Shown here piece after piece: positions 9,195 through 50,201 of a stretch of DNA of 64,000 nucleotides; within the stretch, counting starts at the first letter, position 1; the number at the start of each line of letters is the position of its first letter. The DNA lies in the NCBI GenBank assembly GCA_965207885.1, contig OZ242311.1, forward strand, positions 5,728,001-5,792,000, in the 5' to 3' direction. The stretch is from Candidatus Latescibacterota bacterium. GTDB lineage: Bacteria > Latescibacterota > UBA2968. The notes beneath the pieces were generated by a model. The model saw only the letters and a list, made by a program, of their open reading frames with translations, was not told the DNA's origin and made no database searches. Made by a program: the position numbers and the translations under genes.

Positions 9195-9279
9195 TCAGAC
9201 TTACCTCCGCTGCGCTCCACGAATTAGTATAGCTTCCTCAGATGAAGCATAACATTATAAAATTAAAGGGTTAAAGGGA

Positions 9280-20142: not shown

Positions 20143-20345
20143 TGAGAACAGGAATATCGAACTGAGGATAGCGACTGATGTACTCCACATATTGCAAAAT
20201 TTTAAACCCCTGGAGAGATACACTCTTCAGGGGTAATTTCGATAGATTTGAATTACAAGCAATGTTACAAACATTCATAGATTGAAACTTTAGAGGTACT
20301 GGTTATACTACAAAAGTCAATGCAATGTCTCAAAAGGATAATGAT

Positions 20346-26483: not shown

Positions 26484-26497
26484 AGAGGAGTTTACCC

Positions 26498-29422: not shown

Positions 29423-29425
29423 AAC

Positions 29426-30277: not shown

Positions 30278-30279
30278 CC

Positions 30280-31236: not shown

Positions 31237-31826
31237 CTACCTTCTTAAAAACGGCGGATTTGACACCAGATCAGTTTCTCGATCTGATTACCAATCTCGA
31301 CCACGATGACACACCCCAGCAACGGATCTGGCTGGAAACACCTGATGGTTGGGCCTTCAATTGGTGGTGCGGCCTGGCTGGCGACCTCTCTTGGTGTGGT
31401 GCAGGCCGCGAGCCGGTTGAAAAATCTGCCCGTGATTGTCTGACCCGATCTACCTCCGGGCGATTGTTTGCGCCTGACGGTGAACTGCGCTGGCGCGTTA
31501 TTCCCTCTCTGGGGGAATCGTGCTGGCGTACCGTTTTCCTCGGTAACGCCGATTGGGTGGGTACTGCATTAAACGACTACTCAGATAAACTACATGATCT
31601 GCATCCACATCAGGACAGCTTTTTTTTGTGGGGCCAGCAAACCGATGAGACACCGAATGAGTGGATTGAACTACGTATTCCACATCGCTTCAATTATCCG
31701 ATTAGCGATAACCCTCGCAGCGTGAGCGTTGTTGTTGAGCAGTGGAGCGACGATGCCGGTGAGCCTCACTTTGTCCGATTGTGTGATCTCAAACCCTATC
31801 AGGAGAACAGTGATGCCGCAAGGTGA
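31233..31826 (+). CDS. Csx19-like type III-D subunit
   Basis: GRLFAPDGELRWR, LWG, ELRIP, C-terminal VRL; typical position before the last Cas7. Confidence 0.65.
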   Translation: MTTFLKTADLTPDQFLDLITNLDHDDTPQQRIWLETPDGWAFNWWCGLAGDLSWCGAGREPVEKSARDCLTRSTSGRLFAPDGELRWRVIPSLGESCWRTVFLGNADWVGTALNDYSDKLHDLHPHQDSFFLWGQQTDETPNEWIELRIPHRFNYPISDNPRSVSVVVEQWSDDAGEPHFVRLCDLKPYQENSDAAR

Positions 31827-32916: not shown

Positions 32917-33015
32917 CGGCAGGAATTACTCTTGAAAACAGCCCCAAACCAGTAGGGTGACCCGTGTCATCCCTTGATGATAGACGGCGGAATTGGTTTA
33001 TAGAAAGGTAAGCAT

Positions 33016-34301: not shown

Positions 34302-34339
34302 ATCAGGATGTATTACCCGGCATTGTGGCCGATCTCAAC
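34302..34339 (+). repeat. degenerate CRISPR repeat just after the last cas gene
   Basis: ATCAGGATGTATTACCCG matches 16 of the first 18 nt of the repeat; the 3' half has decayed. Confidence 0.55.
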
Positions 34340-36501
34340 GACTGGATAGAGGGAGGTTAAAAGAGACTTCATAGTTTAATTCAAGCCAGTGGATGCGACC
34401 CAGAGACGTTTATCAATGTCATGCTGGCAGTTTGAGCGTGTAGCGAACAACGTGCGTGAGGATTACAGGCATTTCCTCATGTGCTGGTGGGTCGCAAATT
34501 TCTAACCTTTTGCAGGAGTGTGTATTATGAACAGAGCCGTGAATGCAATTTTTCATTTTTGGGAGGATTTTGTATGTCAAAATGGCCTGAGTCGCAAACC
34601 GCCTTGTAATTGCTTGCGAGACAGGAAATAACGCAGACGGTATCAGGAAGAATTACCCGCTTATTGGGGTATTGAAACTTTGGCACTTCGCCAGCACATC
34701 GCTACCATTGCGTTGGGATCAGGAAGAATTACCCGCTTATTGGGGTATTGAAACAAAAAGAGTGGACGGTATTTTGGAACGAATCGGTGCCAGTCAATCA
34801 GGAAGAATTACCCGCTTATTGGGGTATTGAAACTCTGCTATAGCGGTGAAATGAGGGGACGGCAGGGAGGGATATCAGGAAGAATTACCCGCTTATTGGG
34901 GTATTGAAACCGCGTCCAATCAAAAGATCGGACGCCGCAAAATATAGTTAATCAGGAAGAATTACCCGCTTATTGGGGTATTGAAACCTGAGCAGATCGA
35001 TACCAACATACGCGAACTTGAAGGCGCATCAGGAAGAATTACCCGCTTATTGGGGTATTGAAACTTGGACGAGCCTGTTTTGGCTCCAAATGTTACCACC
35101 ATCAGGAAGAATTACCCGCTTATTGGGGTATTGAAACCGGTTGATCTCGTAGATGAGGTTGGTAAGTTCTACCCAATCAGGAAGAATTACCCGCTTATTG
35201 GGGTATTGAAACGTGAAAATTAACTGCCGTTTCTGCTTTCGCTTTTTCAAGACAATCAGGAAGAATTACCCGCTTATTGGGGTATTGAAACCTGGGTATG
35301 CACATCCGACCAGATGATCGGCACTGGGCCTGATCAGGAAGAATTACCCGCTTATTGGGGTATTGAAACTTGCCGCTGCCGTCGGGGTCAATCGCGTTCA
35401 GGGCGATCAGGAAGAATTACCCGCTTATTGGGGTATTGAAACGGTTGCTGCCTGTCCCAGAATCGCCTGGATTGCCGTGCGAATCAGGAAGAATTACCCG
35501 CTTATTGGGGTATTGAAACCAGGTACATGCGCCCGCGCTAAACAAGTTTTCAGCAGATCAGGAAGAATTACCCGCTTATTGGGGTATTGAAACCTGCCTC
35601 GAACTCTGCCATTTTTTCTTCTGAGATTTTTATATCAGGAAGAATTACCCGCTTATTGGGGTATTGAAACTCCTCGTCATCATCCCCAATCCCTGGGGAT
35701 ATTGATGCTATCAGGAAGAATTACCCGCTTATTGGGGTATTGAAACTTTCTCCATCGCCCTGCCACGTAAAATTCGTGTGTTCAAAAATCAGGAAGAATT
35801 ACCCGCTTATTGGGGTATTGAAACTTTTACAGTTTTTGCTACAGCCTGAAATTCTGCCATTATCAGGAAGAATTACCCGCTTATTGGGGTATTGAAACCA
35901 GTCGATGATGGCATAGCGATCCAACGTCGCGGCGTATCAGGAAGAATTACCCGCTTATTGGGGTATTGAAACCTCAATATGATAAATTATGTTGGCCGCA
36001 TCCCAGTATCAGGAAGAATTACCCGCTTATTGGGGTATTGAAACTTGCATAATTGTCCGATCGGGATTTATATTTTTGGATATATCAGGAAGAATTACCC
36101 GCTTATTGGGGTATTGAAACGGTTATCTTTGTGTCTGGTTGATTTTGGCAAATGCTAATCAGGAAGAATTACCCGCTTATTGGGGTATTGAAACTTTTTT
36201 GAGGGCGGGACTTGCTCCGACCGCACAAAGAAATCAGGAAGAATTACCCGCTTATTGGGGTATTGAAACTATCGAAGGATTTGCGCTTAAACATTTCCTT
36301 TCGGGCTTATCAGGAAGAATTACCCGCTTATTGGGGTATTGAAACCGGGGTTGTCTGATTTATGAGGACTGAATTTGTTGTTATCAGGAAGAATTACCCG
36401 CTTATTGGGGTATTGAAACAGATTCTGCTTCTGGGTCATCTTCGAGGTGTTTTTGGGCAATCAGGAAGAATTACCCGCTTATTGGGGTATTGAAACGAGA
36501 A

Positions 36502-38898
36502 GTAGGGTAGGCTGCTGGCGAGTTACCCAAAGGCACTTTTCCATCAGCCCCCCTCCGAACCGGACGTGATAGTTTCCCATCATCCGGCTCTCCAGTAACT
36601 TTCACCGTTTTGAGGTCGGCCCGCCTCGATGGATGTTGATATGACAGCTTTTACAGACGACAAGTGTTTTTCTGCGTCTTGCTGCCATTTTATGTTTCCA
36701 TCTTGGCTTTTTCTTCCTTCCCGGCTTGTCCACATCCGTTAGTTTGCGTATGTGGTGAACTTCTACTTCTTGCCGAGAACCACATAATTCACATTCTGAT
36801 GCCGTTAAGCGTTGTATTAGCTCGCTACGACTCCAGTATGGTTTTATGTCTTTCAGGCCGTCCTTGATTACCGCGTTCTCTGTGTTGCGTATTAAGGGAA
36901 CCCCTCCAAAGTATGCGATTAGGGGCTTTTTACCTTCTCTTTCTACGGTTACTTGTATGCATTTTCGTGGGCCTCTTGGGGTAATTACTTTACCCTTATA
37001 TTTCCTTGCCGTTTTTCTCACTTGCGATTTGTGTTTATTCGCAAGTGTCTTTAGCAGGGACGTTTGTATGACCCATTCCAATTTGCTCAGTCTCCGTATG
37101 TTGTTTGCGAGTTGGTAGTATTGCACAAAGCCTCTATATTCCCTTTGATAGCGGGATATGATGTCAAAGTCGCTGTCCTGTAACAATTGTGGTCGCGCCT
37201 CTGGCTTCCCGTTTCTCATATAGGTATTGCATCTCGCATCACTTACATCTTTGGGGATGTATAAGCCGAGTCTTCCATTAATGGCCCTTTTCTTAATGTA
37301 GCTGTCCATTTGTGTGTTACTGAAATATCCCTTGATTTCGTATCCTAAAAATCTGGCTCTTTCGGTGGTTACGTGGGTTATTAGGGTCTTTTCTTCTGAA
37401 AGTTCGAGCTTCATATCTTGCAGGAATTTCTTTAGAATTGACTTAATTCCCCTTGCTTCCATTTTGGAGCCTACTAATCCTATTAGGAAGTCGTCAGCGT
37501 ATCTTATGTAGTATATTCTTTTGAAATCGGGGTCGTCTTGGAGTGAGCAGGGTATTTTCTGCATCTTCTGTCTATACTCCTTTGCTTCTTCAAATCGACC
37601 TTTCTTTTTCAGGTGATATACTTTGTTAATCAGATACCTGTATTCAGGGTTTTTCTTTCGGCTTTTTCCTTTTGTGAATAGAGATTTGAGGGTGTTTTCA
37701 ACAAATTTATCCAGTCTATCGAGGTAGATATTTGAGAGTATCGGGCTTACGATTCCCCCTTGTGGCGTTCCGCTCAAGGTGGGTGTGTAATTCCAATTCT
37801 CCATATATCCTGCTTTGAGTAGATTGGATATTAACCGCAGAAATCGGTTGTCTCGGATTTTCTCTCGGAGTATTGATAGTAAGATTTGGTGGTCTATATT
37901 ATCGAAGCACCCCTTAATATCTCCTTCGACAAACCATTTCGTTCCGTTCCACTTTTTGACTGCTTGTAATGCCGTGTGACAGCCTTTATTTGGTCGGAAC
38001 CCGTGAGACAAGCTGCTAAATTGCGGTTCATAATACGCTTCTAATATGGAGCGTATTACTTCCTGCACAAGTTTGTCTGTCCACGTAGGAATGCCTAACG
38101 GTCGCATTTTACCGTTTTTCTTTGGTATATGTGTCCGTCTCACTGGAGTCCATCTGAAGCGTTCATAGCGTATTTGTTCTATGATTGCTTTAATTTTCTT
38201 CAGTGACATTCCATCAACGGTTTCTTCCGTTATACCTTTGGTCATTGCGCCTTTGTTGCGTTGAATGCGACTGTAGGCCCGCAGGTATAGATCGGGGTTG
38301 AACATTTGTCGATAAACGTCTTCAATGGGTAATCCTCTTAAACCTCGATTTCGGATGATACCTAATACTGTTTCGGCGTCTCGCATCTCGCGTGCCTCCT
38401 GTATTATTGTATCCAGTTACCTGTTTTCCTTCGCCTTGTGGACGGCTTTCCCGTCCTCTGACTACTATGAAAACTCCGTTACCATAGGACTCGCGTCCCG
38501 TAGGCAATCCCGTGTTTTTCTGTTGTGGTCTGTATTAGTGTGGGTTAGGTAGTCCACTCATTCCTTAAATGAGCTACATTGCTCATCGTTGGCAGTTCCA
38601 AAGGTTATGGGAAAGCATTGGTTAATTTCCCATAAAACTGATACCGGTATCGGACGACTTTCCGGTAGGGCGAAGCGACCGTCCTTCTGGAATTGGACTT
38701 CGGGCAGTTTAGCTCTTACCATACCACACAGGTCTTGCGGAGCAAATGTTTTTGTCGCCTTCTCTACATTCTCCGCTTTACGAATATGCTATTTTCCCTT
38801 TCGCCTTTCGGTTCCGGTTGATTCGTTGACCTATGGACGTTCCTTTGAGTCCATCCTGATTTAGTCAGGAATACCACATCAGACGCTACACGGCGCAC
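36502..38898 (-). mobile_element. group II intron (IIA, Ll.LtrB-like), apparently complete, 2397 bp
   Basis: 5' GTGCG at 38898; domain V GAGCCGGATGATGGGAAACTATCACGTCCGGTTC; domain VI ending CCTACCCTAC at 36502; EBS1 loop at 38616-38621. Confidence 0.93.
36602..38386 (-). CDS. intron-encoded reverse transcriptase/maturase with HNH endonuclease (LtrA-like)
   Basis: RPLGIP, HGFRP, GDIKGCFDNI, GTPQGG, RYADD, FLG; C-terminal CELC...HH...CKSCH. Confidence 0.95.
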   Translation of the reverse strand: MRDAETVLGIIRNRGLRGLPIEDVYRQMFNPDLYLRAYSRIQRNKGAMTKGITEETVDGMSLKKIKAIIEQIRYERFRWTPVRRTHIPKKNGKMRPLGIPTWTDKLVQEVIRSILEAYYEPQFSSLSHGFRPNKGCHTALQAVKKWNGTKWFVEGDIKGCFDNIDHQILLSILREKIRDNRFLRLISNLLKAGYMENWNYTPTLSGTPQGGIVSPILSNIYLDRLDKFVENTLKSLFTKGKSRKKNPEYRYLINKVYHLKKKGRFEEAKEYRQKMQKIPCSLQDDPDFKRIYYIRYADDFLIGLVGSKMEARGIKSILKKFLQDMKLELSEEKTLITHVTTERARFLGYEIKGYFSNTQMDSYIKKRAINGRLGLYIPKDVSDARCNTYMRNGKPEARPQLLQDSDFDIISRYQREYRGFVQYYQLANNIRRLSKLEWVIQTSLLKTLANKHKSQVRKTARKYKGKVITPRGPRKCIQVTVEREGKKPLIAYFGGVPLIRNTENAVIKDGLKDIKPYWSRSELIQRLTASECELCGSRQEVEVHHIRKLTDVDKPGRKKKPRWKHKMAARRRKTLVVCKSCHINIHRGGPTSKR

Positions 38899-39588
38899 CT
38901 AATGAGGCTTTGGGTAGATCGTTCACACCCAATCAGGAAGAATTACCCGCTTATTGGGGTATTGAAACTTCGATGCGGGAGCGACCAGCGGCTTGAATCT
39001 TAACAACTGATCAGGAAGAATTACCCGCTTATTGGGGTATTGAAACTATTGCGAGAGAAGATGTTCGCAGATCGAAAGATCCATCAGGAAGAATTACCCG
39101 CTTATTGGGGTATTGAAACTCGAGCTTGACGATGCGCTCTTCGTGGTTGGCGAGACGATCAGGAAGAATTACCCGCTTATTGGGGTATTGAAACGCGTCA
39201 AGGTCTCTGCGTATCTGGTCGAAATTGTCCTCGGATCAGGAAGAATTACCCGCTTATTGGGGTATTGAAACAAATATACTGCACACCACAAGCAGAGCAT
39301 CTCAAAAGTGCATCAGGAAGAATTACCCGCTTATTGGGGTATTGAAACCCGCGGACAGCGAGCGCAAAATCGTCGCAGTCGCTTCTGATCAGGAAGGATT
39401 ACCCGCTTACTGGGGTATTGAAACAATAGCTTGCGGATACACACAGCAAACTCGTTGTAATCATCAGGAAGGATTACCCGCTTACTGGGGTATTGAAACG
39501 AAACTGTCTTACTTTTTTACTTCGGGAATGATTTTGGGATCAGGAAAGATTACCTGTTTACAAAAAGAAAAAGGAGAGGAAACAAGTG

Positions 39589-39809
39589 ATGCCACTAATC
39601 GCGATGTCAGGAAGTGATGCCCTGCTCTTTCTCCTATTCTGGTTCCTGGGATGGTTCGCCTCGCCATTGGGGTGGGCCTTATATACCTCACGCTCAAAGT
39701 GCTACGCAGAATCTCTGAAAAAATAGACAGTCGTCGTGTTAAGGAAACTTCTGCTGACCTTTTGGAGGCACTGGCCGCCAAACTCAAAGAGGACAAAAAA
39801 CAACGATAG
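39589..39809 (+). pseudogene. small membrane protein, apparently frameshifted near 39659
   Basis: RBS AAGGAGAGG; MPLIAMSGSDALLFLLFWFLGWF continues as LAIGVGLIYLTLKVLRR...KKQR-stop if one C is added. Confidence 0.45.
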
Positions 39810-39932
39810 TATGCAGTGTAAAATTGAAATACAGAAAGGAATCTCCTTTTAGTAGTTATTTCCCAGAGTATTCAACTGCTTAGACACTCAGACACCTTCA
39901 TTGTCCGAACTCTATCCGATAAGGGTAATATC

Positions 39933-42062
39933 ATGAATAAAATAGTCTCAAGAATCTCCAGATACTTCAGAAGATGGTATGATGAAATCAAGTTGCAGCA
40001 AGTCCTTAAAGAATGCTGTCACGTAGCGCGCGAAGGATACCGGATTGCAAGTGCCAACCTTGATGAAATCAAGATCACTATAGACGGAGAAGTTTCGAAA
40101 TTGAAATCACACCTGGCAACTTTGAATAATGAGAATATCCAAACAGACCACATTGAACAACAGATACAAAAACAACTACAACAAGTGGTGTCAGAACTCG
40201 GCTCTTTGCACAAAAGCCAAGTGCGCCTTCTGGAAGAGAAACACTCACAAATGGACAAATTTTCAATTGCCCTCTTTGGTCGCACACTGGCTGGTAAATC
40301 AACATTGATGGAAATTTTGACCAAAGGCGATGGTTCATCCATCGGAAAGGGAAACCAACGCAATACCCGAGATGTGCGTAGCTACGACTGGAAAGGACTT
40401 AAAATCACTGATGTCCCCGGCGTAGCTGCATCTGACGATGAAGGCCGTGAGGACGAAGAAAAAGCATTCGAGGCGGCTGTGCAGTCGGACCTGGTGCTTT
40501 TCCTCATCACCAACGATGCGCCCCAGGACTCAGAAGCAAGGTGCCTCGCACGCGTGCGATCACAAGGCAAGTCGATTCTGGGTATCTTGAATTTTAAAGA
40601 GGGTCTCAACAATGAGGACGATATACGAATTTTCTTGCGAGATAACTGGTTCAAAAATGATCGGCAGGATATCCACGACATCGTTCAACAGTTCCACGAA
40701 TCTGTGAACAAATATAGCCCGGGGAATCGGATCAGGTTCCTTTATACCCATTTGCTATCGAGATTCCTATCTCAACAGCCGCAGTACAAATCGCACCAGA
40801 ATAATTTGGAACGCGCAAGCCGCTTCGACTATGTCGAACAGCAAATTATATCGGAGGTAATTAACCGGGGAAGATTCCTGAAATGGAAGAGCTTTATCGA
40901 CATTTCCGTAGTTCCAATGCTTGAATTTAGCGATAAATTATTGGAGTTTAGTGCCCAGAACTCATCCAGTGGTAGAATTTTCCTTGGCAAAAGGGACCAG
41001 ACCCAATCATGGTCTGATGGATTTAGCAAAAGTGGCAAAGAACGCATTGATACGTTTATAAAAAAAGAAATGAACTTGCTGCGTGATGAAATTCCGGGAT
41101 TTGCGGAGACCTATTATGACCGATCTAATGCTGGCGATCGCTGGAACCGCTTAGTCAAAAAGCAAGGCATAGAGCGGAAAGCAAAAAAACTTGCTGAACA
41201 GATCCAGAATGAATGTAAATCTGAACTGTCAGAGATTGCACGACAACTTAAATTTGCACTGAATTCCGTCGGTAAATTTGCTGATGATCGCAAAATTAGC
41301 ATGGATTCTATATTCGATACAAAACGCGCCTGGAATTGGGGGACTACAATTCTTTCGGGTGGTCTTGGTATTGCTGCTCTCATTCTTGGTAGCGGTCCTA
41401 TCGGCTGGGTTGCGGCAGCAGTTGCGGGATTAGGGCGCTTGATATCATGGCTTTTAGGTGACCGCGAAAAAAAAGCGAGAAAGCAACGCAAAAAACTCGA
41501 AAAGATGCTCAATAGCGAAGTCAACAAGATAGAAAGTAATATTCGAAAACAGCTCAATGATTGGTTTCAGGGTGTACTGAAAAATCAAGTCGCTGTCCTT
41601 ATCAAAGACCTCTCTACTACCACATCGAATCTCTTCAAGCTGGCAGATGTACAAAGAACTCTGGCCTGGGCACTCAACAAAGGACAGAAACGTCTCCACC
41701 GCGATCTACTCAATGAAGCACTCGATCAACTTGGACAAAAAGATAAAGGGAACCTCATATTAGATATAGCGCGAGTACCAGGACTGGCAATTATGTTATT
41801 GATAGAGCCTAAAACTACATTTCCAAAGGACGTACGCAGGAATTTAGAAAAAATACTTGGAGAAAAGGTTTGGTTCGTAGTCAATACCCGTAACAAAACC
41901 TCAATTCTGGCGCAGGCTATTGGGCACGACTGTGATCGAAGCAAAGTTCGTATCAAATCAAAAATTCAAGTTGCCCATGTTCCGGTAGGAGACCTTAATG
42001 CAGTTGGTATTTCTCGAATCAGACTAGCGCAACAACTGACCGAACTCCATGTGATGAAGTAA
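39933..42062 (+). CDS. dynamin-like/TRAFAC GTPase (LeoBC-like) with coiled coils and hydrophobic hairpin
   Basis: G1 GRTLAGKST, G3 DVPG, G4-like NFKE; hydrophobic ILSGGLGIAALILGSGPIGWVAAAV. Confidence 0.7.
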   Translation: MNKIVSRISRYFRRWYDEIKLQQVLKECCHVAREGYRIASANLDEIKITIDGEVSKLKSHLATLNNENIQTDHIEQQIQKQLQQVVSELGSLHKSQVRLLEEKHSQMDKFSIALFGRTLAGKSTLMEILTKGDGSSIGKGNQRNTRDVRSYDWKGLKITDVPGVAASDDEGREDEEKAFEAAVQSDLVLFLITNDAPQDSEARCLARVRSQGKSILGILNFKEGLNNEDDIRIFLRDNWFKNDRQDIHDIVQQFHESVNKYSPGNRIRFLYTHLLSRFLSQQPQYKSHQNNLERASRFDYVEQQIISEVINRGRFLKWKSFIDISVVPMLEFSDKLLEFSAQNSSSGRIFLGKRDQTQSWSDGFSKSGKERIDTFIKKEMNLLRDEIPGFAETYYDRSNAGDRWNRLVKKQGIERKAKKLAEQIQNECKSELSEIARQLKFALNSVGKFADDRKISMDSIFDTKRAWNWGTTILSGGLGIAALILGSGPIGWVAAAVAGLGRLISWLLGDREKKARKQRKKLEKMLNSEVNKIESNIRKQLNDWFQGVLKNQVAVLIKDLSTTTSNLFKLADVQRTLAWALNKGQKRLHRDLLNEALDQLGQKDKGNLILDIARVPGLAIMLLIEPKTTFPKDVRRNLEKILGEKVWFVVNTRNKTSILAQAIGHDCDRSKVRIKSKIQVAHVPVGDLNAVGISRIRLAQQLTELHVMK

Positions 42063-42081
42063 CTCAGAAAGGAATCATTTA

Positions 42082-43818
42082 ATGAAAGAAATACATATCC
42101 ATTCATATACAAAAAAAGGAGAGTGTCTGCTTGAGAGAGCAAAACAGGTTCTCCAAGATGCACCTGTCGATAAGGTACGGAACTTTGCACAACGGGTTCC
42201 AAGAGGAATGGCAACTTCTGAAGAAGCCGTTCAGGTAGTCTTTGCCGGTCAATACAGTGCAGGTAAGTCTTCAATTCTCAAGGCAATGACGGGACAAGAA
42301 GATATCGAGATAGGAGCTGGGATTACGACTCGACGGACACAACAGTTTGACTGGAATGGAATCAGAGTAGTGGATACGCCGGGTGTCCATACGGAGTTAC
42401 GACCCGACCATGACAAAATAACGTACGGGGCAATCAGTAAAGCCGACCTCCTGATCTTTGTTATTACCAATGAATTATTTGACTCCCATATAGCAACACA
42501 TTTTAGAAAACTTGCAATTGATCGGGATAAAGCCCATGAAATGCTGTTGGTTGTGAACAAGATGCAGCGATGTGACAAGGGAAATACATCAGCGGCTCAG
42601 GATGTAATTCGGGAAGACCTTCGAAAAGATCTATTGCCCTTCTCTCCAGAACAACTTCGTATATCTTTCTTGGATGCTGAAGACGCTCTCAAGATCCGCA
42701 CAGAGCAGGACGAAGAATACCGCAGAATCTACCATAAAAGAAGTGGTTTTGATGCCTTCATCGATAATTTCAATGCGTTTATTAAAGAAAAGGAATTAAT
42801 CGCACGTTATACAACACCGCTCTACACCCTCGAACAAGTACTACAAGAGGCCCTCGCAGTCGAGCCGAGCGATGACCCTGATGTGGATGCCCTACAAGAG
42901 TTATTAATTCAGCAAAGACGCGCATTATTGGATAGTAAAGCACAGATTTCTCAATCAGTAAAAAATAAAGTCCAACAGACAACAAACAAGATTCGGGAGG
43001 AAGGTCGCAATGTTGCTGATCTGATTCGTGGAAATTCGGACTTTGAGAAAGTTGATCGGGAATTAACGGCTGCCCAAGAGCGCGTTCAAGAATATGTGGA
43101 TTCATTGACGGAACTCGTTCAAGAAACAGTTGAAGAGCATATTAGCGATCTCGCTGAGCGGATAGAGCAAATCGCGGAGAGCGAACTCGCCAAAGAGTTA
43201 CTATCGAGGCTTATAGAAAGACTCCAAGGTCTCAATGTTGATCCAGAGACTCTATCTAAGGTAAAAAAGGGCGCAGATTTCGCCAGCCGATTTGGGAAAT
43301 TCCTCGTTAAGAACTCGTTTAATCCTACGACCTCGACATTTTCCGGATTGTTCAAACTCCACCAGTATTCGGGTACAGCAATGCACGGCATGGTCAAAAA
43401 TATAGGACATTTCTTAGGAAAGTCCTTTAAGCCTTGGGAAGCAGTAAAATGGACGCGTACAATCGCAAATGCTGGTCGAGTTTTGAGCGTAGTAGGCACT
43501 GTTCTAACCATTGTGTTTCAAATTAAAGAAGACGCCGATGCTGCTAATTTAGAACAGGAATTGCGCGAAAGCCGAACTGCTGTAAGGGCGGGATTTAGTG
43601 AGGCCGCCAGTGCAATTGAACTCCATTTTGATGAAGCAACCAACACTTATGTAGCCAAAACCATTGGTCAGCGTCTCGAAGAGGTAGATAAGCAACTTGA
43701 GGAACTCAGAGATATGAAGCAATCTCGTAGCGATCTCTTTCAACAACTCAATGGCCTATTAGAAGATACGAAGGAGCTTATCTCGGAAATGCATGTGTCG
43801 TATAACCCCCATGAATGA
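42082..43818 (+). CDS. dynamin-like GTPase (LeoA-like)
   Basis: G1 GQYSAGKSS, G3 DTPG, G4 NKMQ; long helical stalk with paddle-like segment. Confidence 0.72.
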   Translation: MKEIHIHSYTKKGECLLERAKQVLQDAPVDKVRNFAQRVPRGMATSEEAVQVVFAGQYSAGKSSILKAMTGQEDIEIGAGITTRRTQQFDWNGIRVVDTPGVHTELRPDHDKITYGAISKADLLIFVITNELFDSHIATHFRKLAIDRDKAHEMLLVVNKMQRCDKGNTSAAQDVIREDLRKDLLPFSPEQLRISFLDAEDALKIRTEQDEEYRRIYHKRSGFDAFIDNFNAFIKEKELIARYTTPLYTLEQVLQEALAVEPSDDPDVDALQELLIQQRRALLDSKAQISQSVKNKVQQTTNKIREEGRNVADLIRGNSDFEKVDRELTAAQERVQEYVDSLTELVQETVEEHISDLAERIEQIAESELAKELLSRLIERLQGLNVDPETLSKVKKGADFASRFGKFLVKNSFNPTTSTFSGLFKLHQYSGTAMHGMVKNIGHFLGKSFKPWEAVKWTRTIANAGRVLSVVGTVLTIVFQIKEDADAANLEQELRESRTAVRAGFSEAASAIELHFDEATNTYVAKTIGQRLEEVDKQLEELRDMKQSRSDLFQQLNGLLEDTKELISEMHVSYNPHE

Positions 43819-43835
43819 CTTGAGATTGTCTTAAG

Positions 43836-44173
43836 TCAAGAAAGGATTACCCGACTACTGGGGTATTGAAACTCATCACCGAGACGTTCTTTGGTTGAAT
43901 ACTTCCCTTCGAATCAGGAAAGATTACCCGACTACTGGGGTATTGAAACGTATCTGTCACCATTACGATATAGTTGTTTCCATCGGCAATCAGGAAGGAT
44001 TACCCGCTTACTGGGGTATTGAAACCAGACCTCAGCAGCTTCGTTTGCATCAACGACGATTATCAGGAAGGATTATCCGACTACTGGGGTATTGAAACAT
44101 GTCCGCCTCGCAGAAGTTCATCTCGTTCATCTTCCGAAGATCAGGAAGAAATTACCCGACTACTGGGGTATTT
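43836..44173 (+). CRISPR. second array segment: 5 variant repeats (first and last degenerate), 4 spacers
   Basis: Repeats at about 43836, 43913, 43989, 44062 and 44140; the 43989 copy is identical to main-array repeats 32-33. Confidence 0.9.
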
Positions 44174-44291
44174 ACCATTTTTAGGGTTGTGCTTGTAGTG
44201 TAGCCTCAGATTCTCTATCTTTTGAATAGATCTTAATACAGAATACAGAGGATGTGCGTCCAACCACGATATGCTATGGGAGGAGATGCCA

Positions 44292-44555
44292 ATGAACCAG
44301 CTAACATTAAGCGGATTTGACAAAGAATTGACCGATAGAATCCGGCATTTCGCAAACCAGGAGGGTATTTCGCTAAATCAAGCCGCGTTGAGACTTCTGC
44401 GCGTTGGGGCCGGTCTCAAGCAATCAAAGGATAGCGGCGACACCGTTGGATCTTCCCTGGACCATCTAATTGGAACCTGGACGGTCGAGGAAGCTGAGGT
44501 ATTGAATAATGCCGTAAAAGAATTGGAACAAATTGACGAGTCTATGTGGAAATGA
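44292..44555 (+). CDS. FitA/VapB-like antitoxin
   Basis: MNQLTLSGFD...A..EGISLN RHH pattern; GTW...ID...WK; overlaps the vapC start. Confidence 0.75.
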   Translation: MNQLTLSGFDKELTDRIRHFANQEGISLNQAALRLLRVGAGLKQSKDSGDTVGSSLDHLIGTWTVEEAEVLNNAVKELEQIDESMWK

Positions 44556-44950
44556 AAATTCTCCTTGACACCAATGCGTATTCACATCTGAAGCGAGGGC
44601 ATCGCAGGGTTGCGGCGTTAGTACGCATGTCCGAGGAAATTTTCCTGTCAGCTATTATCATTGGCGAATTGCTCTACGGCTTTCGGCAAGGCTCGCGCAT
44701 TGACCGGAATATTGAGGAACTTAAAGCCTTCCTCAACAACCCCTATGTCACATTTGTACCTATAAGTTTCGCAACAGCCGAACATTACGCGCAGATTGCA
44801 ATGTCGTTGAGAACCAAGGGGCGTCCCATCCCGTCAAACGACATTTGGATCGCTGCTCAAGCAATGGAGACAGGTGCCAATCTCGTTTCGTCTGATCAGC
44901 ATTTTTCAGAAATTGATGGTCTCGCGTGGACATACGTCTCGACTGAATAA
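44552..44950 (+). CDS. vapC: VapC PIN toxin
   Basis: LLDTNAY, GELLYG, GRPIPSNDIWIAA, SSDQHF. Confidence 0.9.
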   Translation: MKILLDTNAYSHLKRGHRRVAALVRMSEEIFLSAIIIGELLYGFRQGSRIDRNIEELKAFLNNPYVTFVPISFATAEHYAQIAMSLRTKGRPIPSNDIWIAAQAMETGANLVSSDQHFSEIDGLAWTYVSTE

Positions 44951-44978
44951 CATTTTCCTTTTCTAACAAAAATGAATC

Positions 44979-45233
44979 ATGACAAAGCCAAAACTATATG
45001 AAGAAGTGGCAATAGCGCGCAACATACCGGAAGAAAATCTAAAACAGGGTGATGTTGCTGTCGTGGTCGAATATGTACCGCATCCTACGGGTGGAGAAGA
45101 AGGAGCAATTTTAGAGATTTTTAATGCCATTGGCGAATCCGTCGCTGTGGTCACAGTGCCTATCTCTGCGATTAAATCGCTACATGCTGATCAAGTACTG
45201 ATGGTGCGTGAGAGAACGCCTGCAAAATTTTAG
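44979..45233 (+). CDS. DUF4926-like small protein
   Basis: LKQGDVAVVVE...LEIFNAIGESVAVVTV. Confidence 0.7.
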   Translation: MTKPKLYEEVAIARNIPEENLKQGDVAVVVEYVPHPTGGEEGAILEIFNAIGESVAVVTVPISAIKSLHADQVLMVRERTPAKF

Positions 45234-45349
45234 ATCAGGAAGGATTACCCGACTACTGGGGTATTGAAACCTTTCGCTTGACTAATAATAATATAATATA
45301 AAACCCTTCCGAATCAGGAAGGATTACCCGACTACTGGGGTATTGAAAC
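45234..45349 (+). CRISPR. mini-array: 2 variant repeats, 1 AT-rich spacer
   Basis: ATCAGGAAGGATTACCCGACTACTGGGGTATTGAAAC at 45234 and 45313. Confidence 0.88.
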
Positions 45350-45360
45350 TGTGCCTGGAT

Positions 45361-45394
45361 GTGCATTTTTGCACGGATGCGTGCATTTCTGCAC
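45361..45394 (+). promoter_or_regulatory. tandem candidate enhancer sites GTGCA-N4-TGCAC
   Basis: GTGCATTTTTGCAC 45361-45374 and GTGCATTTCTGCAC 45381-45394, about 105 bp upstream of the -24 box. Confidence 0.7.
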
Positions 45395-45499
45395 GCCTGT
45401 TTTCCTCTGGTGAACGCCTATTTGAGATCTTTTTGCAAAAAAAACCTCGAAAAAGGAACAAAAAAAGAAAATCCTCATTTTTTTGAGGATTTTTTTCTT

Positions 45500-45515
45500 T
45501 GGCACGCTTTTTGCA
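45500..45515 (+). promoter_or_regulatory. sigma54 -24/-12 promoter of the CAPP-cas1-cas2 operon
   Basis: TGGCACGCTTTTTGCA matches the consensus exactly. Confidence 0.85.
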
Positions 45516-45531
45516 TATAAATAGGGCGTTC

Positions 45532-45569
45532 GTCAGGAAGGATTACCCGATTTATTGGGATCGTGAAAT
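45532..45569 (+). repeat. degenerate CRISPR repeat at the predicted transcription start
   Basis: GTCAGGAAGGATTACCCGATTTATTGGGATCGTGAAAT. Confidence 0.65.
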
Positions 45570-45701
45570 CTTTTTTCTTGACAAGTGAACATTTGAGCAC
45601 TACTTTTTGGTTGAAATTAAACCGCCAAAAAGAGTAACATAAGCCACAGGTGTCCCCCACATGTGGTTATATTTTTCTCTAAAAAAGAAAGGAATCTCCC
45701 C

Positions 45702-47630
45702 ATGACAACCCCTGCCATTGAACAGTCGTCTCCCACATCTCTGGTAGATACCCTCTGCGAAAAAGCACAGGTGCTATTAGAACAAAACAATATAGATGGC
45801 GTGGAGACATTGGCTTCGGAAGCCTGTGCGCGCGATCCGGCGTGCAATCGCGCACATCAATTGATGCTCCGCGTAGCCCTCATCCGAGACGAACAGGACA
45901 AAGCACAAACATTGCTCAATCGGTGGCGCGATTTGCCGGTAGATGATGCATTTGGTGAATGGGGTGTACTCGCAGAAGAAATGAACGACATACAGTCAGC
46001 CGTTGAAATCTATCAGGCGCACCTATCTCAGTGCCCTGACGATGCCAAATCCCTATTTGGACTGGCAATGCTACACGCAGACCGCAATGAAACGGGCCTC
46101 GCGCAATCGCGCTTGCAAACCCTCATCCAGCACCATGCAGACCATATAGAGGGCATCTTTGAACTCGCCCGCCTGTACGAAGAAGACGGCATGATGGGCC
46201 TCGCCCAAGAACTCTACGCACGGGTGCTCGAACTCGATCCGGACCATGCGGGCGCACTTGCGGGTAAACAACTCGTCGGCGCACAATTGCAAACATCCCA
46301 AACCTTACCAGATGCAACCATCAAAAATCACCCCGATAGTGCCGCCCTGATCCTCAGGCTATTTGCCGCGCGAAAAGACGTGTACGCACGCCAATGGATC
46401 GATGAAGACGGAAAAACCGGCTATGTCCCCGTGCGCGAACCCCTCACAGAAGACGCGATCCAATCCCACCTCCAGGGAGATACAACTGTAGGCGTCTATC
46501 CAATTTTTGACCGGGACAAAGCACAATTTTTGGCCCTGGATATCGACATAAAAAAAGAAGCCCTCAACACAGCGCAGCAAAACAACACCTTAATGGATGC
46601 GTTGCGCGAACAAGTATGCAAAGACATCCGGCGGGTCTGCGCGGGCTTCGCCTCCCTCAACCTCCCTGTTCACATCGAAGACAGCGGAAACAAAGGCGCG
46701 CATATATGGCTCTTCTTTGAAAAACCCATCCGCGCCTGCGACCTCCGCGCATTTGGTCGTGCTTTTGTAAAGCGATTTGGCCCAGCATCAGAAGATTTGC
46801 AGTGGGAGTGGTTTCCCAAACAAGACGCCGTTGGGGAAGATGAACTGGGCAACCTGATCAAACTACCACTCGGCATCCACCGCAAAACAGGACGACGCGC
46901 GTTATTTATCGACACAGAAGGACACGCGCTCGCAGATCAAGATCGGGTATTGTGTGACATCAAACCCATAAACACACAGGCTTATGACCATGCGGTCTCC
47001 CGCTTGGGCGGAGGAGAGACCCACACGCCCCTGAAACAAGTTGATCTGAAAAAAGCATTTCCAGAATTTCAACCCCTTATGCAAGGCTGTGCAGTCATTC
47101 GCGCACTCACAGAAAAAGCCTTTGCAACCGCCCATCTGGTACACATCGAACGCCATGTTTTGAAATGCGTATTCGGGCATCTCGACGACAAGGGACGCGC
47201 CTTCTTACACGCGGTAATTGGCGCGTGTGCAGATTACAAAGCCGAAGTAACCGATTATCAGATCGAACGCCTGCACCCGCATCCCATTGGCTGTCCGAAA
47301 ATCCGCAAACACCTGCCCGACCTCATTGAAACCGTCCCCTGCAACTGCGAATTTGACCTGCCAGAAGGCGGGTATCCCTCTCCCTTGCTACATATCGACC
47401 CGGCATTTACCGCTGGCATGGGACGTGTGGATCAACCGCAAAACCGCGAAATCGTAGATCGCTACATCACACTGCGCCAGCAAGCCGCACAGGTAATGGC
47501 CGACCTATCGCGTACAGAAGATGAAATGCGCGACATATTGCGCGACCGCAAAGGCAAAATCTCCACAGGCGTCTGGGTAGTCACAGCGGATGACGCGGGA
47601 CGATTGCAAATAGGCATTGAGGCGGTGTAA
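45702..47630 (+). CDS. CRISPR-associated primase-polymerase (CAPP): TPR + AEP + Cys-rich PriL-like C-terminus
   Basis: TPR-like helices; AEP motifs LDID, EDSGNKGAH, GNLIKLPLG; HPIGCPKI and CNC; directly upstream of cas1. Confidence 0.85.
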   Translation: MTTPAIEQSSPTSLVDTLCEKAQVLLEQNNIDGVETLASEACARDPACNRAHQLMLRVALIRDEQDKAQTLLNRWRDLPVDDAFGEWGVLAEEMNDIQSAVEIYQAHLSQCPDDAKSLFGLAMLHADRNETGLAQSRLQTLIQHHADHIEGIFELARLYEEDGMMGLAQELYARVLELDPDHAGALAGKQLVGAQLQTSQTLPDATIKNHPDSAALILRLFAARKDVYARQWIDEDGKTGYVPVREPLTEDAIQSHLQGDTTVGVYPIFDRDKAQFLALDIDIKKEALNTAQQNNTLMDALREQVCKDIRRVCAGFASLNLPVHIEDSGNKGAHIWLFFEKPIRACDLRAFGRAFVKRFGPASEDLQWEWFPKQDAVGEDELGNLIKLPLGIHRKTGRRALFIDTEGHALADQDRVLCDIKPINTQAYDHAVSRLGGGETHTPLKQVDLKKAFPEFQPLMQGCAVIRALTEKAFATAHLVHIERHVLKCVFGHLDDKGRAFLHAVIGACADYKAEVTDYQIERLHPHPIGCPKIRKHLPDLIETVPCNCEFDLPEGGYPSPLLHIDPAFTAGMGRVDQPQNREIVDRYITLRQQAAQVMADLSRTEDEMRDILRDRKGKISTGVWVVTADDAGRLQIGIEAV

Positions 47631-47631
47631 T

Positions 47632-48633
47632 GTGTCCGTACTCTACGTCACAGAAACCGGTGCTCAGGTACGACGCGAAGGCGAGCGATTGACCGTGTGG
47701 AAAGGCAAGAAAAAACTCCACACATCATCTGCGTATGATCTGCACCAGGTGGTCATATTTGGCAACATCGGAATAACACCTGCTGCCATGCACACCGCGC
47801 TGATGCAGGGCATTGACCTCGTACTTCTCAGCACCACGGGCAGTTATCGCGGGCGACTGGTGGGACCACAGGGCCGCAACATCATTCTGCGACAAATGCA
47901 ATATCGCCGCTACGAAGACGAAGATTTTCGATTGGGTGCTGCGCGGGGATTTGTATCGGGAAAAATCCGCAACATGCGTACCCTCATAATGCGCCTTGCT
48001 CGACGTCGAAACCGGGACATTGCCCACACCGCACAGCGACTGCGCGCACTCTTAAAACAGGTCGATCGCATAGACAATGCCGATGCGCTACGCGGAATCG
48101 AAGGCGCGGCAACCGCGACTTACTTCGGTGCGCTGGGTCAATTTTTGCCCTCTGCATTTCCCTTTGTCAAACGCACGCGACGCCCGCCCAAAGACGCGGT
48201 CAACTCCATGTTGAGCTTTGGCTATACGCTACTGTCTTCGGACCTGGAATCGGCTGTCTTGCGCGTGGGATTAGATCCCTATATCGGTTATCTGCATCTC
48301 GTGGATTACGGACGTCCCTCGCTCGCCCTGGACATGATGGAAGAATTTCGCCCGATAATTGTAGATGCAATGGTACTGGACCTGCTGAATCACGGACAAA
48401 TCAAAAAAGAGGACTTTGAACAACGCGACGGAGGCGTATTTCTGTGTGGCGATGGACGAATGCAGTTAATTCGCGCCTATCAGGATCGCGTCGCAACTGA
48501 AGTTCAATATGTACAACCCAGTGGACAGGTACAAAAAGTGCCGTATCGCCAGTGTTTTGAATTGCAAGCCCGCCGTCTCATTCGCCTGTTACGCGGTGAA
48601 GACGCGGCATATCTGCCGTTTTTAATTCGATAA
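47632..48633 (+). CDS. cas1: Cas1 integrase
   Basis: LRGIEG, RRPPKDAVNSMLSFGY, GLDPYIGYLH, SLALDMMEEFRP. Confidence 0.95.
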   Translation: MSVLYVTETGAQVRREGERLTVWKGKKKLHTSSAYDLHQVVIFGNIGITPAAMHTALMQGIDLVLLSTTGSYRGRLVGPQGRNIILRQMQYRRYEDEDFRLGAARGFVSGKIRNMRTLIMRLARRRNRDIAHTAQRLRALLKQVDRIDNADALRGIEGAATATYFGALGQFLPSAFPFVKRTRRPPKDAVNSMLSFGYTLLSSDLESAVLRVGLDPYIGYLHLVDYGRPSLALDMMEEFRPIIVDAMVLDLLNHGQIKKEDFEQRDGGVFLCGDGRMQLIRAYQDRVATEVQYVQPSGQVQKVPYRQCFELQARRLIRLLRGEDAAYLPFLIR

Positions 48634-48650
48634 ATGTAGAGACCAATACA

Positions 48651-48932
48651 ATGCTCGTGGTCGTAGCCTACGACATAGCGGACAAAAGCCGATTGCGGCG
48701 GGTGATGAAACTCATGGAAAACTACGGATCGCGCCGACAGAAAAGCGTTTTTGAATGCAATCTGAATGAGCGTCGGTTTCTCGCATTGAGGTCCAAAATG
48801 TCGGAATTGATTGACCCGGAAGACGATCGCATCTGTTATTATCATCTATGTGCCGCATGCGAAAAGCGGGTTGAAGGCATATCCGAGCGCGAACATCCCA
48901 TCCCAAAACGCGAAGATTATGTGATTGTGTGA
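48651..48932 (+). CDS. cas2: Cas2
   Basis: VAYDI...YG.R.QKSVFEC...D.I..Y.LC..C. Confidence 0.95.
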   Translation: MLVVVAYDIADKSRLRRVMKLMENYGSRRQKSVFECNLNERRFLALRSKMSELIDPEDDRICYYHLCAACEKRVEGISEREHPIPKREDYVIV

Positions 48933-49038
48933 TTAGAGACCTGACAACCTGCAAGATGGAGATAGGTTGACGACAGGCAAAAAAATGGCTTTCTTCCACG
49001 CGAAACCGCGCCTCCTGTGGAATTGAGCCAGAATTTAC

Positions 49039-49073
49039 AACCCCGTTGATGGAGCGCATCAACGGGGGTTTTT
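49039..49073 (+). terminator. intrinsic terminator after cas2
   Basis: CCCCGTTGATG-loop-CATCAACGGGG followed by a T run. Confidence 0.7.
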
Positions 49074-49085
49074 GTGAGAAAGTAC

Positions 49086-50201
49086 ATGAAACCTGTCGTC
49101 GCGCACAGTGCCAACCCTTTTTTACCAGCCACAGCCACCTGGATATACGATCAAATTCGCGCACTGAAACGGTATCGCCCCATCGTCCTCACACAAACGC
49201 GCCAGAACCTGGATCGTTTTCCCCTGAAACCCGTTCTATCCACCGAAGATATCTCGCCCATTCGCAGAACAACCCTCCGCCTCACTCGCAAAATGCGCGG
49301 CACGTACGCCGGCTATGGAAACTGGCTCCGCGAACACAACGCCGCCCTCCTTCACGCGCATTTTGGACAAGAGGGATACCGATGTCTCTCCGCAAAACAA
49401 CGAGCGGGCATCCCCCTCATCACCACCTTTTACGGCCTGGACGTATCGGCACTGCCCCGTCAAAAAAAATGGCAAAAACGGTACAAACGACTCTTTGCCG
49501 AAGGCGATCTCTTCCTCGTCGAAGGCCCCTTCATGGGCGAACAACTCATCGCACTGGGATGCGCTGCCAACCGGGTAATCGTACAACACCTGGGCGTAGA
49601 TCTCAAAAAAATCCCCTTCAGAACAGACCACACACCCAAACAACCCATCGTATTGACCTATGCTGTATTCCGAGAAAAAAAAGGATTGAAATACGCAATC
49701 CAGGCATTTGCGAAAATAGCAGAAAAATACCCAGACGCCCAACTGCGGATGATCGGCGACGGGCCTTTGCGCCCACACCTACAAGCCGAAATACGAAATC
49801 TACACCTTGAAAACCGCGTAAAAATGCTCGGCCTGCTCCCCCATCCTCTCGCACTCGAAGAACTAAAACGCGCAACAATCCTCCTCTATCCCAGCGTCAC
49901 AGCATCAGATGGCGACACCGAAGGTGGTGCCCCCGTCGCGCTAATCGAAGCAATGGCAATGGGCGTCCCCATCGTATCGTCTCAACACGCCGACATCCCC
50001 GAAGTCGTCATCGACAAAACCTGTGGCCTATTATTCCCCGAACGAGATATCGCGGGCCTCGCTGAAGGATTGGATACCCTCCTCAGCTCCCCCGAACAAT
50101 TTGGCCGCGCTGGCCGCACCCATGTCGAAAATCAACACAACCTTCAAAAACAAGCCGAAAAATTAGAGGTGATTTATGATCGGGTTACAGGAATAAAATA
50201 G
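49086..50201 (+). CDS. GT4 family glycosyltransferase (WcaL-like)
   Basis: LHAHFG, EKKG, DGDTEGGAPVALIEAMAMG. Confidence 0.88.
   Translation: MKPVVAHSANPFLPATATWIYDQIRALKRYRPIVLTQTRQNLDRFPLKPVLSTEDISPIRRTTLRLTRKMRGTYAGYGNWLREHNAALLHAHFGQEGYRCLSAKQRAGIPLITTFYGLDVSALPRQKKWQKRYKRLFAEGDLFLVEGPFMGEQLIALGCAANRVIVQHLGVDLKKIPFRTDHTPKQPIVLTYAVFREKKGLKYAIQAFAKIAEKYPDAQLRMIGDGPLRPHLQAEIRNLHLENRVKMLGLLPHPLALEELKRATILLYPSVTASDGDTEGGAPVALIEAMAMGVPIVSSQHADIPEVVIDKTCGLLFPERDIAGLAEGLDTLLSSPEQFGRAGRTHVENQHNLQKQAEKLEVIYDRVTGIK

Follow-up and report, generated by a model that had tools for sequence, protein, structure and literature searches.

We analysed a 64,000-nucleotide (nt) stretch of a Candidatus Latescibacterota bacterium genome (GenBank assembly GCA_965207885.1, contig OZ242311.1, positions 5,728,001 to 5,792,000 of the forward strand), referred to here as the window, in which a type III-D CRISPR array carries two blocks of protein-coding genes between its repeats. 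An ungapped repeat scan identified a single array on the + strand (34642-45568) with 41 copies of a 37-nt repeat and 0 copies on the - strand. The repeat is confined to this one locus of the 6.23-Mb genome, which held 39 of 39 pattern matches, while the reversed control gave 0. Repeats R1 to R31 are mutually identical and the leader-distal copies vary, which places the leader end of the array at 34642. R1 to R25 with spacers of 35-42 nt represent the leader-proximal, young end (34642-36496), followed by R26 to R33 (38932-39499), of which R32 and R33 carry two changes (G10, C23). Past the first gene block lie R34 and then R35 to R37 with three spacers (43913-44098), and past the second block R39 and R40 with a 42-nt AT-rich spacer (45234-45349). 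R36 at 43989 shows the same two changes as R32 and R33, and the repeat scan confirmed the identity of these copies pointed out in an initial annotation that had been made from the sequence alone. A 'GACTAC' variant is found in R34, R35, R37, R39 and R40. Three gaps interrupt the regular spacing, of 2435 nt (R25-R26), 4336 nt (R33-R34) and 1056 nt (R38-R39), the latter two holding the gene blocks. Folding of the repeat gives a 5-bp hairpin that leaves a tail of 7 nt at the 3' end. Assignment to type III-D is based on Cas10, Csx10, Csx7-type RAMPs, Cas6 and regular direct repeats ending in the tag ATTGAAAC; an 8-nt tag of this kind is typical.

The first block (block 1, 39562-43835) consists of a frameshifted small membrane open reading frame (ORF) and the LeoBC and LeoA genes of an Eleos pair, with all ORFs on the + strand. 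On its left side it follows a 3'-truncated repeat (39539-39561, + strand), in which 16 bases are exact and ca. 23 recognisable and which lacks the 3' half of the hairpin. The small membrane-protein ORF (39587-39809, + strand) is split by a 5-nt insertion near 39656, is intact with 70 amino acids (aa) in the related genome G043, and is separated from LeoBC by ca. 120 nt of sequence without assignment. LeoBC (39933-42062, + strand; PADLOC LeoBC 1.2e-89 over residues 50-628; Pfam MMR_HSR1 8.4e-12) and LeoA (42082-43818, + strand; PADLOC LeoA 9.5e-114 over residues 3-571; Pfam Dynamin_N and DLP_helical) are adjacent genes for dynamin-family GTPases that fit the two Eleos profiles nearly full-length. 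The LeoA stop codon at 43818 is nominally 17 nt upstream of R34 (43836-43872, + strand). However, R34 is a chimeric repeat: its first ca. 9 bases are homologous to the 3' untranslated region (UTR) of the same gene in relatives, as seen in the downstream sequence of G039 and G044, and are thus derived from the cargo and not from the repeat, whereas the remainder is repeat. Within this 9-nt stretch, the 3'UTR of the relatives and the repeat each share 8 of 9 bases with the window, which identifies the right junction as a microhomology crossover. Nucleotide homology to the relatives starts at 39921-40032 depending on the relative, in the closest one just ahead of the LeoBC start codon, and ends at 43844 in G039, inside 'R34'.

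An assembly artefact could be ruled out for block 1 by independent contigs crossing its junctions. Contigs of two other public sequencing runs, X5 (ca. 98% alike) and X6 (ca. 96% alike), begin at the left junction (39539) or extend across it, and one X6 contig spans the right junction as far as 43871. Close strains thus share a genuine insertion; the 5-nt insertion at 39656 is missing in both runs. Transposon-borne cargo was likewise ruled out as an explanation, with no transposase detected by Pfam among the six cargo ORFs searched, as the initial annotation had also noted, and no intron RNA, terminal inverted repeats or target duplication seen in either block. A LeoBC homologue is encoded in 6 of 21 genomes of the genus, the present genome (G000) counted. 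Close homologues (G039, G044, G045; 67-79% aa identity) are located away from any array that was located: G039 and G045 gave no repeat match, and the array of G044 occupies another site than its Eleos pair, which lies within a 7.8-kb island whose syntenic site is empty in this genome. Block 1 has a G+C content of 43-45% compared with 50-54% in flanking genes. Based on these comparisons, block 1 is a lineage-specific gain, the relatives holding the Eleos pair elsewhere and without repeats. Homologues of the small ORF in G043 and G040 occupy two mutually different contexts (L069 1510-1722; L070). With the small ORF and the Eleos pair coming from different contexts, block 1 is a patchwork. In another strain, joints in X6 contigs place the 70-aa ORF directly between the terminal repeat and the gene for the CRISPR-associated primase-polymerase (CAPP). 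By its distribution, this ORF behaves like a tiny mobile gene without recognisable mobility function.

The second block (block 2, 44178-45233) contains an element of ca. 60 nt conserved among relatives, a vapB-like gene, vapC and a DUF4926-like gene, all on the + strand. It follows the damaged repeat R38 (44141-44177, + strand), which has a 1-nt insertion and has lost its final 5 nt. The conserved junction element (44178-44238, + strand) comes directly after this repeat. A weak -35/-10 pair seen by eye in it failed the rule of our promoter scan and was not used. The vapB-like antitoxin gene (44271-44555, + strand; 94 aa, 92-95% aa identity in G041 and G043) overlaps the vapC toxin gene (44546-44950, + strand; Pfam PIN 7.9e-19) by 10 nt. 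The arrangement of a PIN-domain toxin after a small overlapping antitoxin gene is that of a VapBC toxin-antitoxin (TA) system; the antitoxin itself had no Pfam, PADLOC or PHROG match and its fold class is a presumed one. The DUF4926-like gene (44979-45233, + strand; 84 aa) matches Pfam DUF4926 at 3.5e-06 with 26.8 bits, below the 29.1-bit cut-off, and its stop codon at 45233 abuts R39 at 45234 with 0 nt in between. DUF6883 (BECR-Tox3) and DUF4926 have been described in a preprint as a likely toxin-immunity pair. DUF6883, the usual partner, gave 0 matches in the window and in the whole genome, and the window gene can be described as an orphan, divergent immunity gene. The DUF6883 gene lies upstream of DUF4926 in G043 (Pfam 2.5e-15) and, judged by sequence, in G050 and G034.

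The junctions of block 2 are conserved between species. All genomes compared are metagenome-assembled, and the related genomes are not independent of one another. The left junction of vapBC recurs in G041 and G043, where the preceding repeat is one base short and full length, respectively, so that the truncation of R38 must be a later 5-nt deletion. The junction between the DUF4926 stop codon and the repeat is found in G034, G037, G043 and G050, i.e. in five genomes together with the window, while the repeats themselves have diverged. In G043 and G050 the DUF6883-DUF4926 cassette is flanked by full repeats, with 32 nt between the first of them and the start of the cassette and the second directly at its end, and the array tail of G035 holds vapB and a broken vapC. 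The relatives, which the initial annotation had proposed to compare for cargo at the same repeats, thus share the vapBC junction in two cases and the DUF4926 junction in four, and its suggestion that the array tail collects defence and TA genes is supported. The element of ca. 60 nt precedes vapBC here as well as in G041 and G043, and the DUF6883-DUF4926 pair in G034, so that block 2 looks like a recombinant of two older cassettes. These comparisons show block 2 to be old, and older than block 1. The position of the DUF4926 cassette varies between the left border of the island (G043), a site after cas2 (G034) and the array tail (window). In the fetched stretches of G037 and G050 between the conserved flanking genes, no cas-gene query gave a match while the repeats around DUF4926 are kept; locus L060 (G037) holds DUF4926 alone at 9324-9689, and L061 (G050) holds an intact DUF6883-DUF4926 pair on the reverse strand at 8841-9528.

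The island as a whole is syntenic across the genus, lying between a conserved 370-aa gene and a glycosyltransferase-sulfatase pair, and the congeners G046 and G044 show the same layout from the csm6 side to the CAPP side with one continuous array without gene blocks. One could also read the locus as three independent arrays that have a leader each and ordinary genes between them, a reading suggested by the five-repeat and two-repeat segments with a different repeat variant that follow the two blocks. However, no leader-like sequence precedes R34 or R39, which follow stop codons at 17 nt and 0 nt, and a search of 39500-49100 with a 354-nt leader query returned only two 19-nt matches (E 0.64). 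Further, R36 equals R32 and R33 on the other side of block 1, congeners hold a continuous array between the same flanks, and truncated repeats mark the left edges of the blocks. Three separate arrays are hence highly improbable. The absence of a second leader, the repeat variants common to both sides and the block-free array of G046 and G044 all agree with the single ancestral array proposed in the initial annotation. Segments with leaders of their own and cargo syntenic in relatives without repeats, which it had named as the opposite case, were not what we found: the TA cargo is syntenic together with its repeats, and Eleos genes without repeats occur at unrelated sites.

None of the 37 window spacers (0 of 37) matched any fetched locus of the relatives, in a comparison that left out the G052 array and the other arrays of G042, so that, of all units lying between repeats, only the cassettes are conserved from species to species. 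Cassette genes (vapB, vapC, DUF4926, LeoBC, LeoA) are under purifying selection, with ratios of nonsynonymous to synonymous divergence (dN/dS) against relatives of 0.05-0.27 (vapB 0.12-0.27, vapC 0.05-0.16, LeoBC 0.20-0.24, LeoA 0.17-0.19) and similar values for flanking genes. The synonymous divergence (dS) of the cassettes is about half that of flanking genes, with disjoint bootstrap intervals for G043 (cassette 0.175, 95% interval 0.123-0.239; flanking genes 0.384, 0.341-0.432) and G041 (cassette 0.174, 0.096-0.269; flanking genes 0.320, 0.276-0.368). G046 has the most similar CAPP (dS 0.145), yet none of these cassettes is present in its array. Taken together, the low cassette dS and the pattern in G046 suggest lateral exchange of repeat-flanked cassettes or their differential loss.

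We consider it reasonably probable that the leader-distal, decaying end of one type III-D array acts as a harbour for gene cassettes, by way of illegitimate recombination, repeat reshuffling and retention. A dispensable array tail would tolerate insertions. Block 1 would have entered by illegitimate recombination, with its left join in the middle of a repeat and its right join in 9-nt microhomology, and small deletions would afterwards have trimmed flanking repeats. A break within a repeat, a microhomology crossover and a secondarily trimmed repeat fit illegitimate recombination and do not fit integrase products. Block 2 would be the rearranged descendant of TA cassettes (VapBC; DUF6883 toxin with DUF4926 immunity protein) found between repeats in several species of the genus, the DUF6883 toxin having been lost in the window, where VapBC occupies its place. 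Homologous recombination across flanking repeats probably moves cassettes between arrays or deletes them, which would explain the differing sites of the DUF4926 cassette in G043, G034 and the window. TA addiction or a defence benefit may retain the cassettes while ordinary spacers turn over. The initial annotation had described the repeats at 39539 and 44141, the distances of 17 nt and 0 nt and the co-orientation of the cargo, all of which were recovered by sequence reading and repeat scan. Its description of both blocks as starting at a truncated repeat and ending at the next repeat holds as far as both features are present, whereas the truncation of R38 turned out to be secondary and the first ca. 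9 bases of R34 to be cargo-derived.

Several observations weigh against this account. Junctions that fall exactly at repeat boundaries (DUF4926 at 0 nt; in G035 a dockerin-like gene at 1 nt and a 1,167-nt insert, see below) are not predicted by random illegitimate recombination, and the co-orientation of the cassettes can be explained only with a further assumption, e.g. that selection favours read-through expression or disfavours self-targeting by the type III system. The microhomology amounts to only 8 of 9 bases per side, which does not allow the precise point of crossover to be fixed. Retention by addiction would be a conclusion from the gene families involved. The lower cassette dS is derived from short genes (84-308 codons), G034, G035, G037 and G050 show the same trend with overlapping intervals, and a lower synonymous rate instead of exchange could give the same low values.

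The exact-boundary inserts lead to a different possibility, that the adaptation complex of Cas1, Cas2 and CAPP occasionally integrates kilobase DNA as a 'giant spacer', of which useful or addictive inserts in sense orientation would be kept and later eroded. CAPPs polymerise, prime, displace strands and bind a Cas1-Cas2 complex with spacer integration activity, as reported in PMC8211822, and these reported activities would be compatible with such a process. One case comes from G035 (L058, G035:C168), where a 1,167-nt insert (9617-10783) lies between two intact repeats in exact spacer position. It comprises a gene for a dockerin-like secreted protein and the first 177 codons of a phage portal gene, over which a 382-aa portal protein (P0121) is 97% identical; no other copy of the insert was found among the 31 genomes of the family. 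A 648-nt insert in the same array (11205-11852), likewise between intact repeats, holds a 51%-identical paralogue of the dockerin-like gene; 14 nt of the insert precede the ATG of this paralogue, and 1 nt separates its end from the repeat that follows. The DUF6883-DUF4926 cassette between full repeats in G043 and G050, the (nearly) full repeat ahead of vapBC in G043 and G041, and the co-orientation of all protein cassettes with the array point in the same direction. However, neither block of the window lies between two intact repeats: the left repeat of block 1 is cut at approximately position 16-23, and its right junction is a crossover within sequence derived from the cargo. A canonical spacer is flanked by two full, duplicated repeats and measures 35-42 nt, while the blocks measure 4.3 kb and 1.06 kb, their left repeats are damaged and R34 is chimeric. 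With flanking repeats damaged or chimeric and a microhomology crossover at the right junction of block 1, integration by Cas1 and CAPP as suggested in the initial annotation is not supported for this window. Transposable elements plainly account for other large inserts of the lineage, namely insertion sequences (IS4/IS5) in arrays of G043, G042 and L077 as well as group II introns in L081 and in the window. The literature searched contained no demonstration of kilobase integration by Cas1-Cas2, and to our knowledge none exists.

A survey of CAPP loci, which the initial annotation had recommended for finding genes between repeats elsewhere, also speaks against a general role of CAPP. Among 80 loci, arrays were found in 45 (two doubtful). 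Gaps over 1 kb were present in 5 of 14 arrays in Latescibacterota and in 1 of 30 arrays of other phyla, where the single gap encloses the CAPP gene itself; CAPP linkage alone is thus not predictive. Among the five Latescibacterota gaps, the contents of those in L077 and L081 are remnants of IS elements, an ankyrin gene, or csm6 together with a group II intron. The cassette pattern accordingly belongs to this lineage and is not general among CAPP loci. Overall, we regard giant spacers as an unlikely source of the cassettes. The exact-position inserts may stem from capture by the adaptation complex, from recombination with a phage-borne repeat, or from trimming under selection. Regarding their donors, PHROGs gave 0 matches for the 7 proteins tried for a phage source of the G035 insert, scans of viral and metagenome contigs revealed no relatives of portal P0121, and the full-length dockerin-like protein was found only in the G035 array. 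The C-terminal dockerin domain alone has relatives in the genus, with dockerin matches in 21 of 21 genomes.

Another possibility is that the flanking repeats are working parts of the cassettes. Cas6 would free their mRNAs from the CRISPR precursor transcript, as the initial annotation had proposed, or the CRISPR machinery would regulate them, with the TA genes guarding the locus in a manner similar to CreTA. All cassettes are co-oriented with the array, and outside the intron described below no intrinsic terminator was found on the + strand before 45379, with three weak matches (36978-38116) inside the antisense intron. A cas6 gene is present, and the hairpins of R33, R34 and R39 are intact with the expected cut site. 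Given the terminator-free + strand, it would be physically possible for transcripts to read through from the leader and to be cut at R33/R34 and R38/R39. The close spacing in the G043 and G050 cassettes (32 nt from repeat to start, 0 nt from stop to repeat) and the conservation of the stop-repeat junction in five genomes despite repeat divergence would also be consistent with such a function. The promoter scan gave 17 sites, compared with 19.9 +/- 4.1 expected. On the other hand, the repeats upstream of both blocks are damaged, the copy at 39539 lacking the hairpin and R38 the 3' tag. Cassette stretches of G037 and G050 showed no match to cas6, array or leader (within the fetched stretches, not whole genomes), and cassette expression there cannot depend on them. 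Further, none of the 37 spacers, including five in the tail, matched the window outside the array at E <= 1e-3 except for one 16-nt match at ca. 200, and neither spacers nor pseudo-spacers matched cargo or promoters. We find it doubtful that the repeats function in this way, and transcription of the cassettes from an array promoter with Cas6 cutting would at most be conjectural.

In comparison with known systems, the locus shares features with several and is identical to none. Defence islands also combine TA modules and other defence systems, here Eleos, with a CRISPR-Cas island, and are commonly interpreted in terms of stabilisation or addiction. TA systems are reported to be carried on the CRISPR plasmid pSYSA of Synechocystis (PMC5741207), and a type I TA has been reported to adjoin CRISPR arrays of C. 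difficile. Unlike in these cases, where the genes lie beside an array, the genes analysed here lie inside it and are repeat-bounded, with gene-repeat junctions conserved across species, and one cassette occurs also in stretches of two genomes without a cas match. Mobile elements inside arrays, such as the group II intron of the window and the IS4/IS5 elements of congeners, show that arrays tolerate insertions, but both blocks lack the hallmarks of such elements noted above and have illegitimate-looking junctions. The predicted Eleos pair is unusual only in its location.

Chromosomal integrons offer a functional parallel, with compact, mostly promoterless-looking, co-oriented cassettes, a repeated structured site between them and TA or defence cargo. 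TA cassettes stabilise integron arrays. Here, by contrast, CRISPR repeats form the bounding site, ordinary spacers of 35-42 nt make up most of the units and capture by an integrase would be only conjectural. General Pfam, NCBIfam and PADLOC scans of the island ORFs searched revealed no recombinase family, and no tyrosine recombinase, attI or attC was recognised, though no search aimed at them was made. The resemblance can thus be considered a functional one only. It is conceivable, if unlikely, that the array nevertheless operates as an integron-like cassette platform, in which Cas1-Cas2-CAPP or recombination at repeat borders installs kilobase foreign DNA in spacer position, the transcription-dependent type III system tolerates sense inserts that are transcribed with the precursor transcript and trimmed by Cas6, and TA or defence cassettes are kept and exchanged between species. 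Defence systems have been reported in sedentary integrons (10.1101/2024.07.02.601686). In CreTA, a repeat-like mini-array ties a toxin to CRISPR (10.1101/2024.01.05.574328; PMC10097628; 10.1101/2024.10.29.618823), and, as here, a toxin module is physically tied to CRISPR repeat-like sequences so that CRISPR loss is thought to be costly. In contrast to the present case, CreA consists of a pseudo-repeat, a pseudo-spacer matching the toxin promoter and a second pseudo-repeat, and the system is of type I instead of type III. The toxins of the window are ordinary type II protein toxins with protein antitoxins, and none of its 37 spacers matches a toxin promoter in the window.

The common view of a CRISPR array is that of a list of short spacers, with larger contents regarded as damage. 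TA or defence genes beside CRISPR loci and mobile elements inside arrays are already known. Of cassettes that encode proteins, lie between CRISPR repeats and keep their junctions from one species to another, the literature searched, with a search for DUF4926 included, contained no description. Our findings suggest that repeat-flanked TA cassettes can stabilise or ride an array, as is thought for TA cassettes of chromosomal integrons, and that defence genes can be moved with repeats as portable recombination handles. With the 1.17-kb phage fragment of G035 there is a concrete case on which to test if inserts of such length can be made by the adaptation machinery. If illegitimate recombination followed by selection is true, the locus provides a well-documented natural history of array decay. 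It is also a warning for array-calling software, by which it would be split into three arrays.

The remaining genes of the island are those of a type III-D system in the order sigma-54 activator, cas6, ring nuclease, cas10, RAMP genes (csx10, two csx7) and csm6. The first gene (20325-22031) encodes a sigma-54 enhancer-binding activator with AAA+ and helix-turn-helix domains and an N-terminal CARF/ring-nuclease-type domain (TIGR02584, 3.6e-49), and its product is a candidate cyclic-oligoadenylate-sensing transcription factor heading the cas operon. Cas6 (22315-23286, + strand; PADLOC Cas6 E 7e-100, Pfam CRISPR_Cas6 4.6e-19) is the endoribonuclease expected to cut the repeats. Effector and signalling genes occupy 24864-34287 (+ strand) and comprise cas10, RAMP genes, csx10, two csx7 genes, a csx19-like gene with a weak Csx19 match, and csm6 (33016-34287; Csm6 HEPN 4.5e-28). 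NCBIfam matches were obtained for Csx10 (8.4e-40), Csx7 (1.4e-38) and Cas10/Cmr2 (2.6e-21), with the Cas10 and Csx10 scores under the curated cut-offs. A degenerate repeat copy (34302-34338) directly after the csm6 stop codon is followed by the leader of ca. 300 nt (34302-34641 including the copy, + strand), which is thus bracketed by repeat-like sequence. The final 18 nt of the leader are conserved in other strains, where they precede the repeat at loose contig ends in runs X5 and X9.

At the opposite end, the array is followed by a trailer region (45350-45568, + strand) with a 182-nt element, a hairpin with T-run (45468-45493) and a degenerate terminal repeat (45532-45568). Unlike any of the spacers, the trailer element is shared with G043, G046 and G044, at 87-90% nt identity, and its hairpin and T-run are present on both strands. 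Its probable role is that of an array terminator and/or a promoter region for the operon that follows. The 'spacer' between R39 and R40 (45271-45312) has a G+C content of ca. 19% and forms, together with TTGAAA of the R39 end, the best promoter-like match of the region (45264-45292, 10 of 12 positions). Rather than being a spacer derived from phage, this stretch may serve as a promoter directed towards the trailer and the CAPP operon. The adaptation operon (45663-48932, + strand) encodes a TPR-primase-polymerase, CAPP (45663-47630; Pfam AEP-TOTE 3e-46, PADLOC PrimPol 6.2e-79), whose homologues are annotated as 'CRISPR-associated primase-polymerase type A1', Cas1 (47617-48633; Pfam Cas1 1.5e-100) and Cas2 (ca. 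48651-48932), the latter found by tblastn with 96%. In G043 (L057 12811-15457) the CAPP match falls into two pieces, probably as a result of a frameshift, cas1 is without match, and two repeats begin a few bases past the end of cas2; in G034 repeats occur 12 nt after cas2. These repeats suggest an ancestral second array downstream of cas2, as at most other CAPP loci.

Small elements are also associated with the arrays of congeners. A 288-nt gap in the G046 array (L063 12788-13075) contains short dispersed repeats, which have 15 matches in the present genome and 0 in the cargo region. The recurrent hairpin element that follows repeats in G034, G037, G043 and G050 was not found in the present genome with a 34-nt pattern at 3 mismatches. 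The short dispersed repeats and the recurrent hairpin beside repeats of congeners (L056, L057, L059, L060, L061, L063) may be array-favouring elements similar to repetitive extragenic palindromes or miniature inverted-repeat transposable elements. The 2435-nt gap of the window array, which lies outside the range covered by the initial annotation, is occupied by a group II intron (36501-38898, - strand; Rfam Intron_gpII 68.3 bits at 36502-36592, domain V/VI) with an ORF for a reverse transcriptase-maturase-HNH protein (36602-38386; Pfam RVT_1 1.7e-37). It splits one spacer, of which 4 nt and 33 nt remain. A second, 100% identical copy of the intron is located elsewhere in the same genome (G000:C1:3116208-3118605), and this identity indicates recent movement. 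The intron is antisense to the array, and the 3' end of its RNA would be complementary to a CRISPR RNA that starts at R25.

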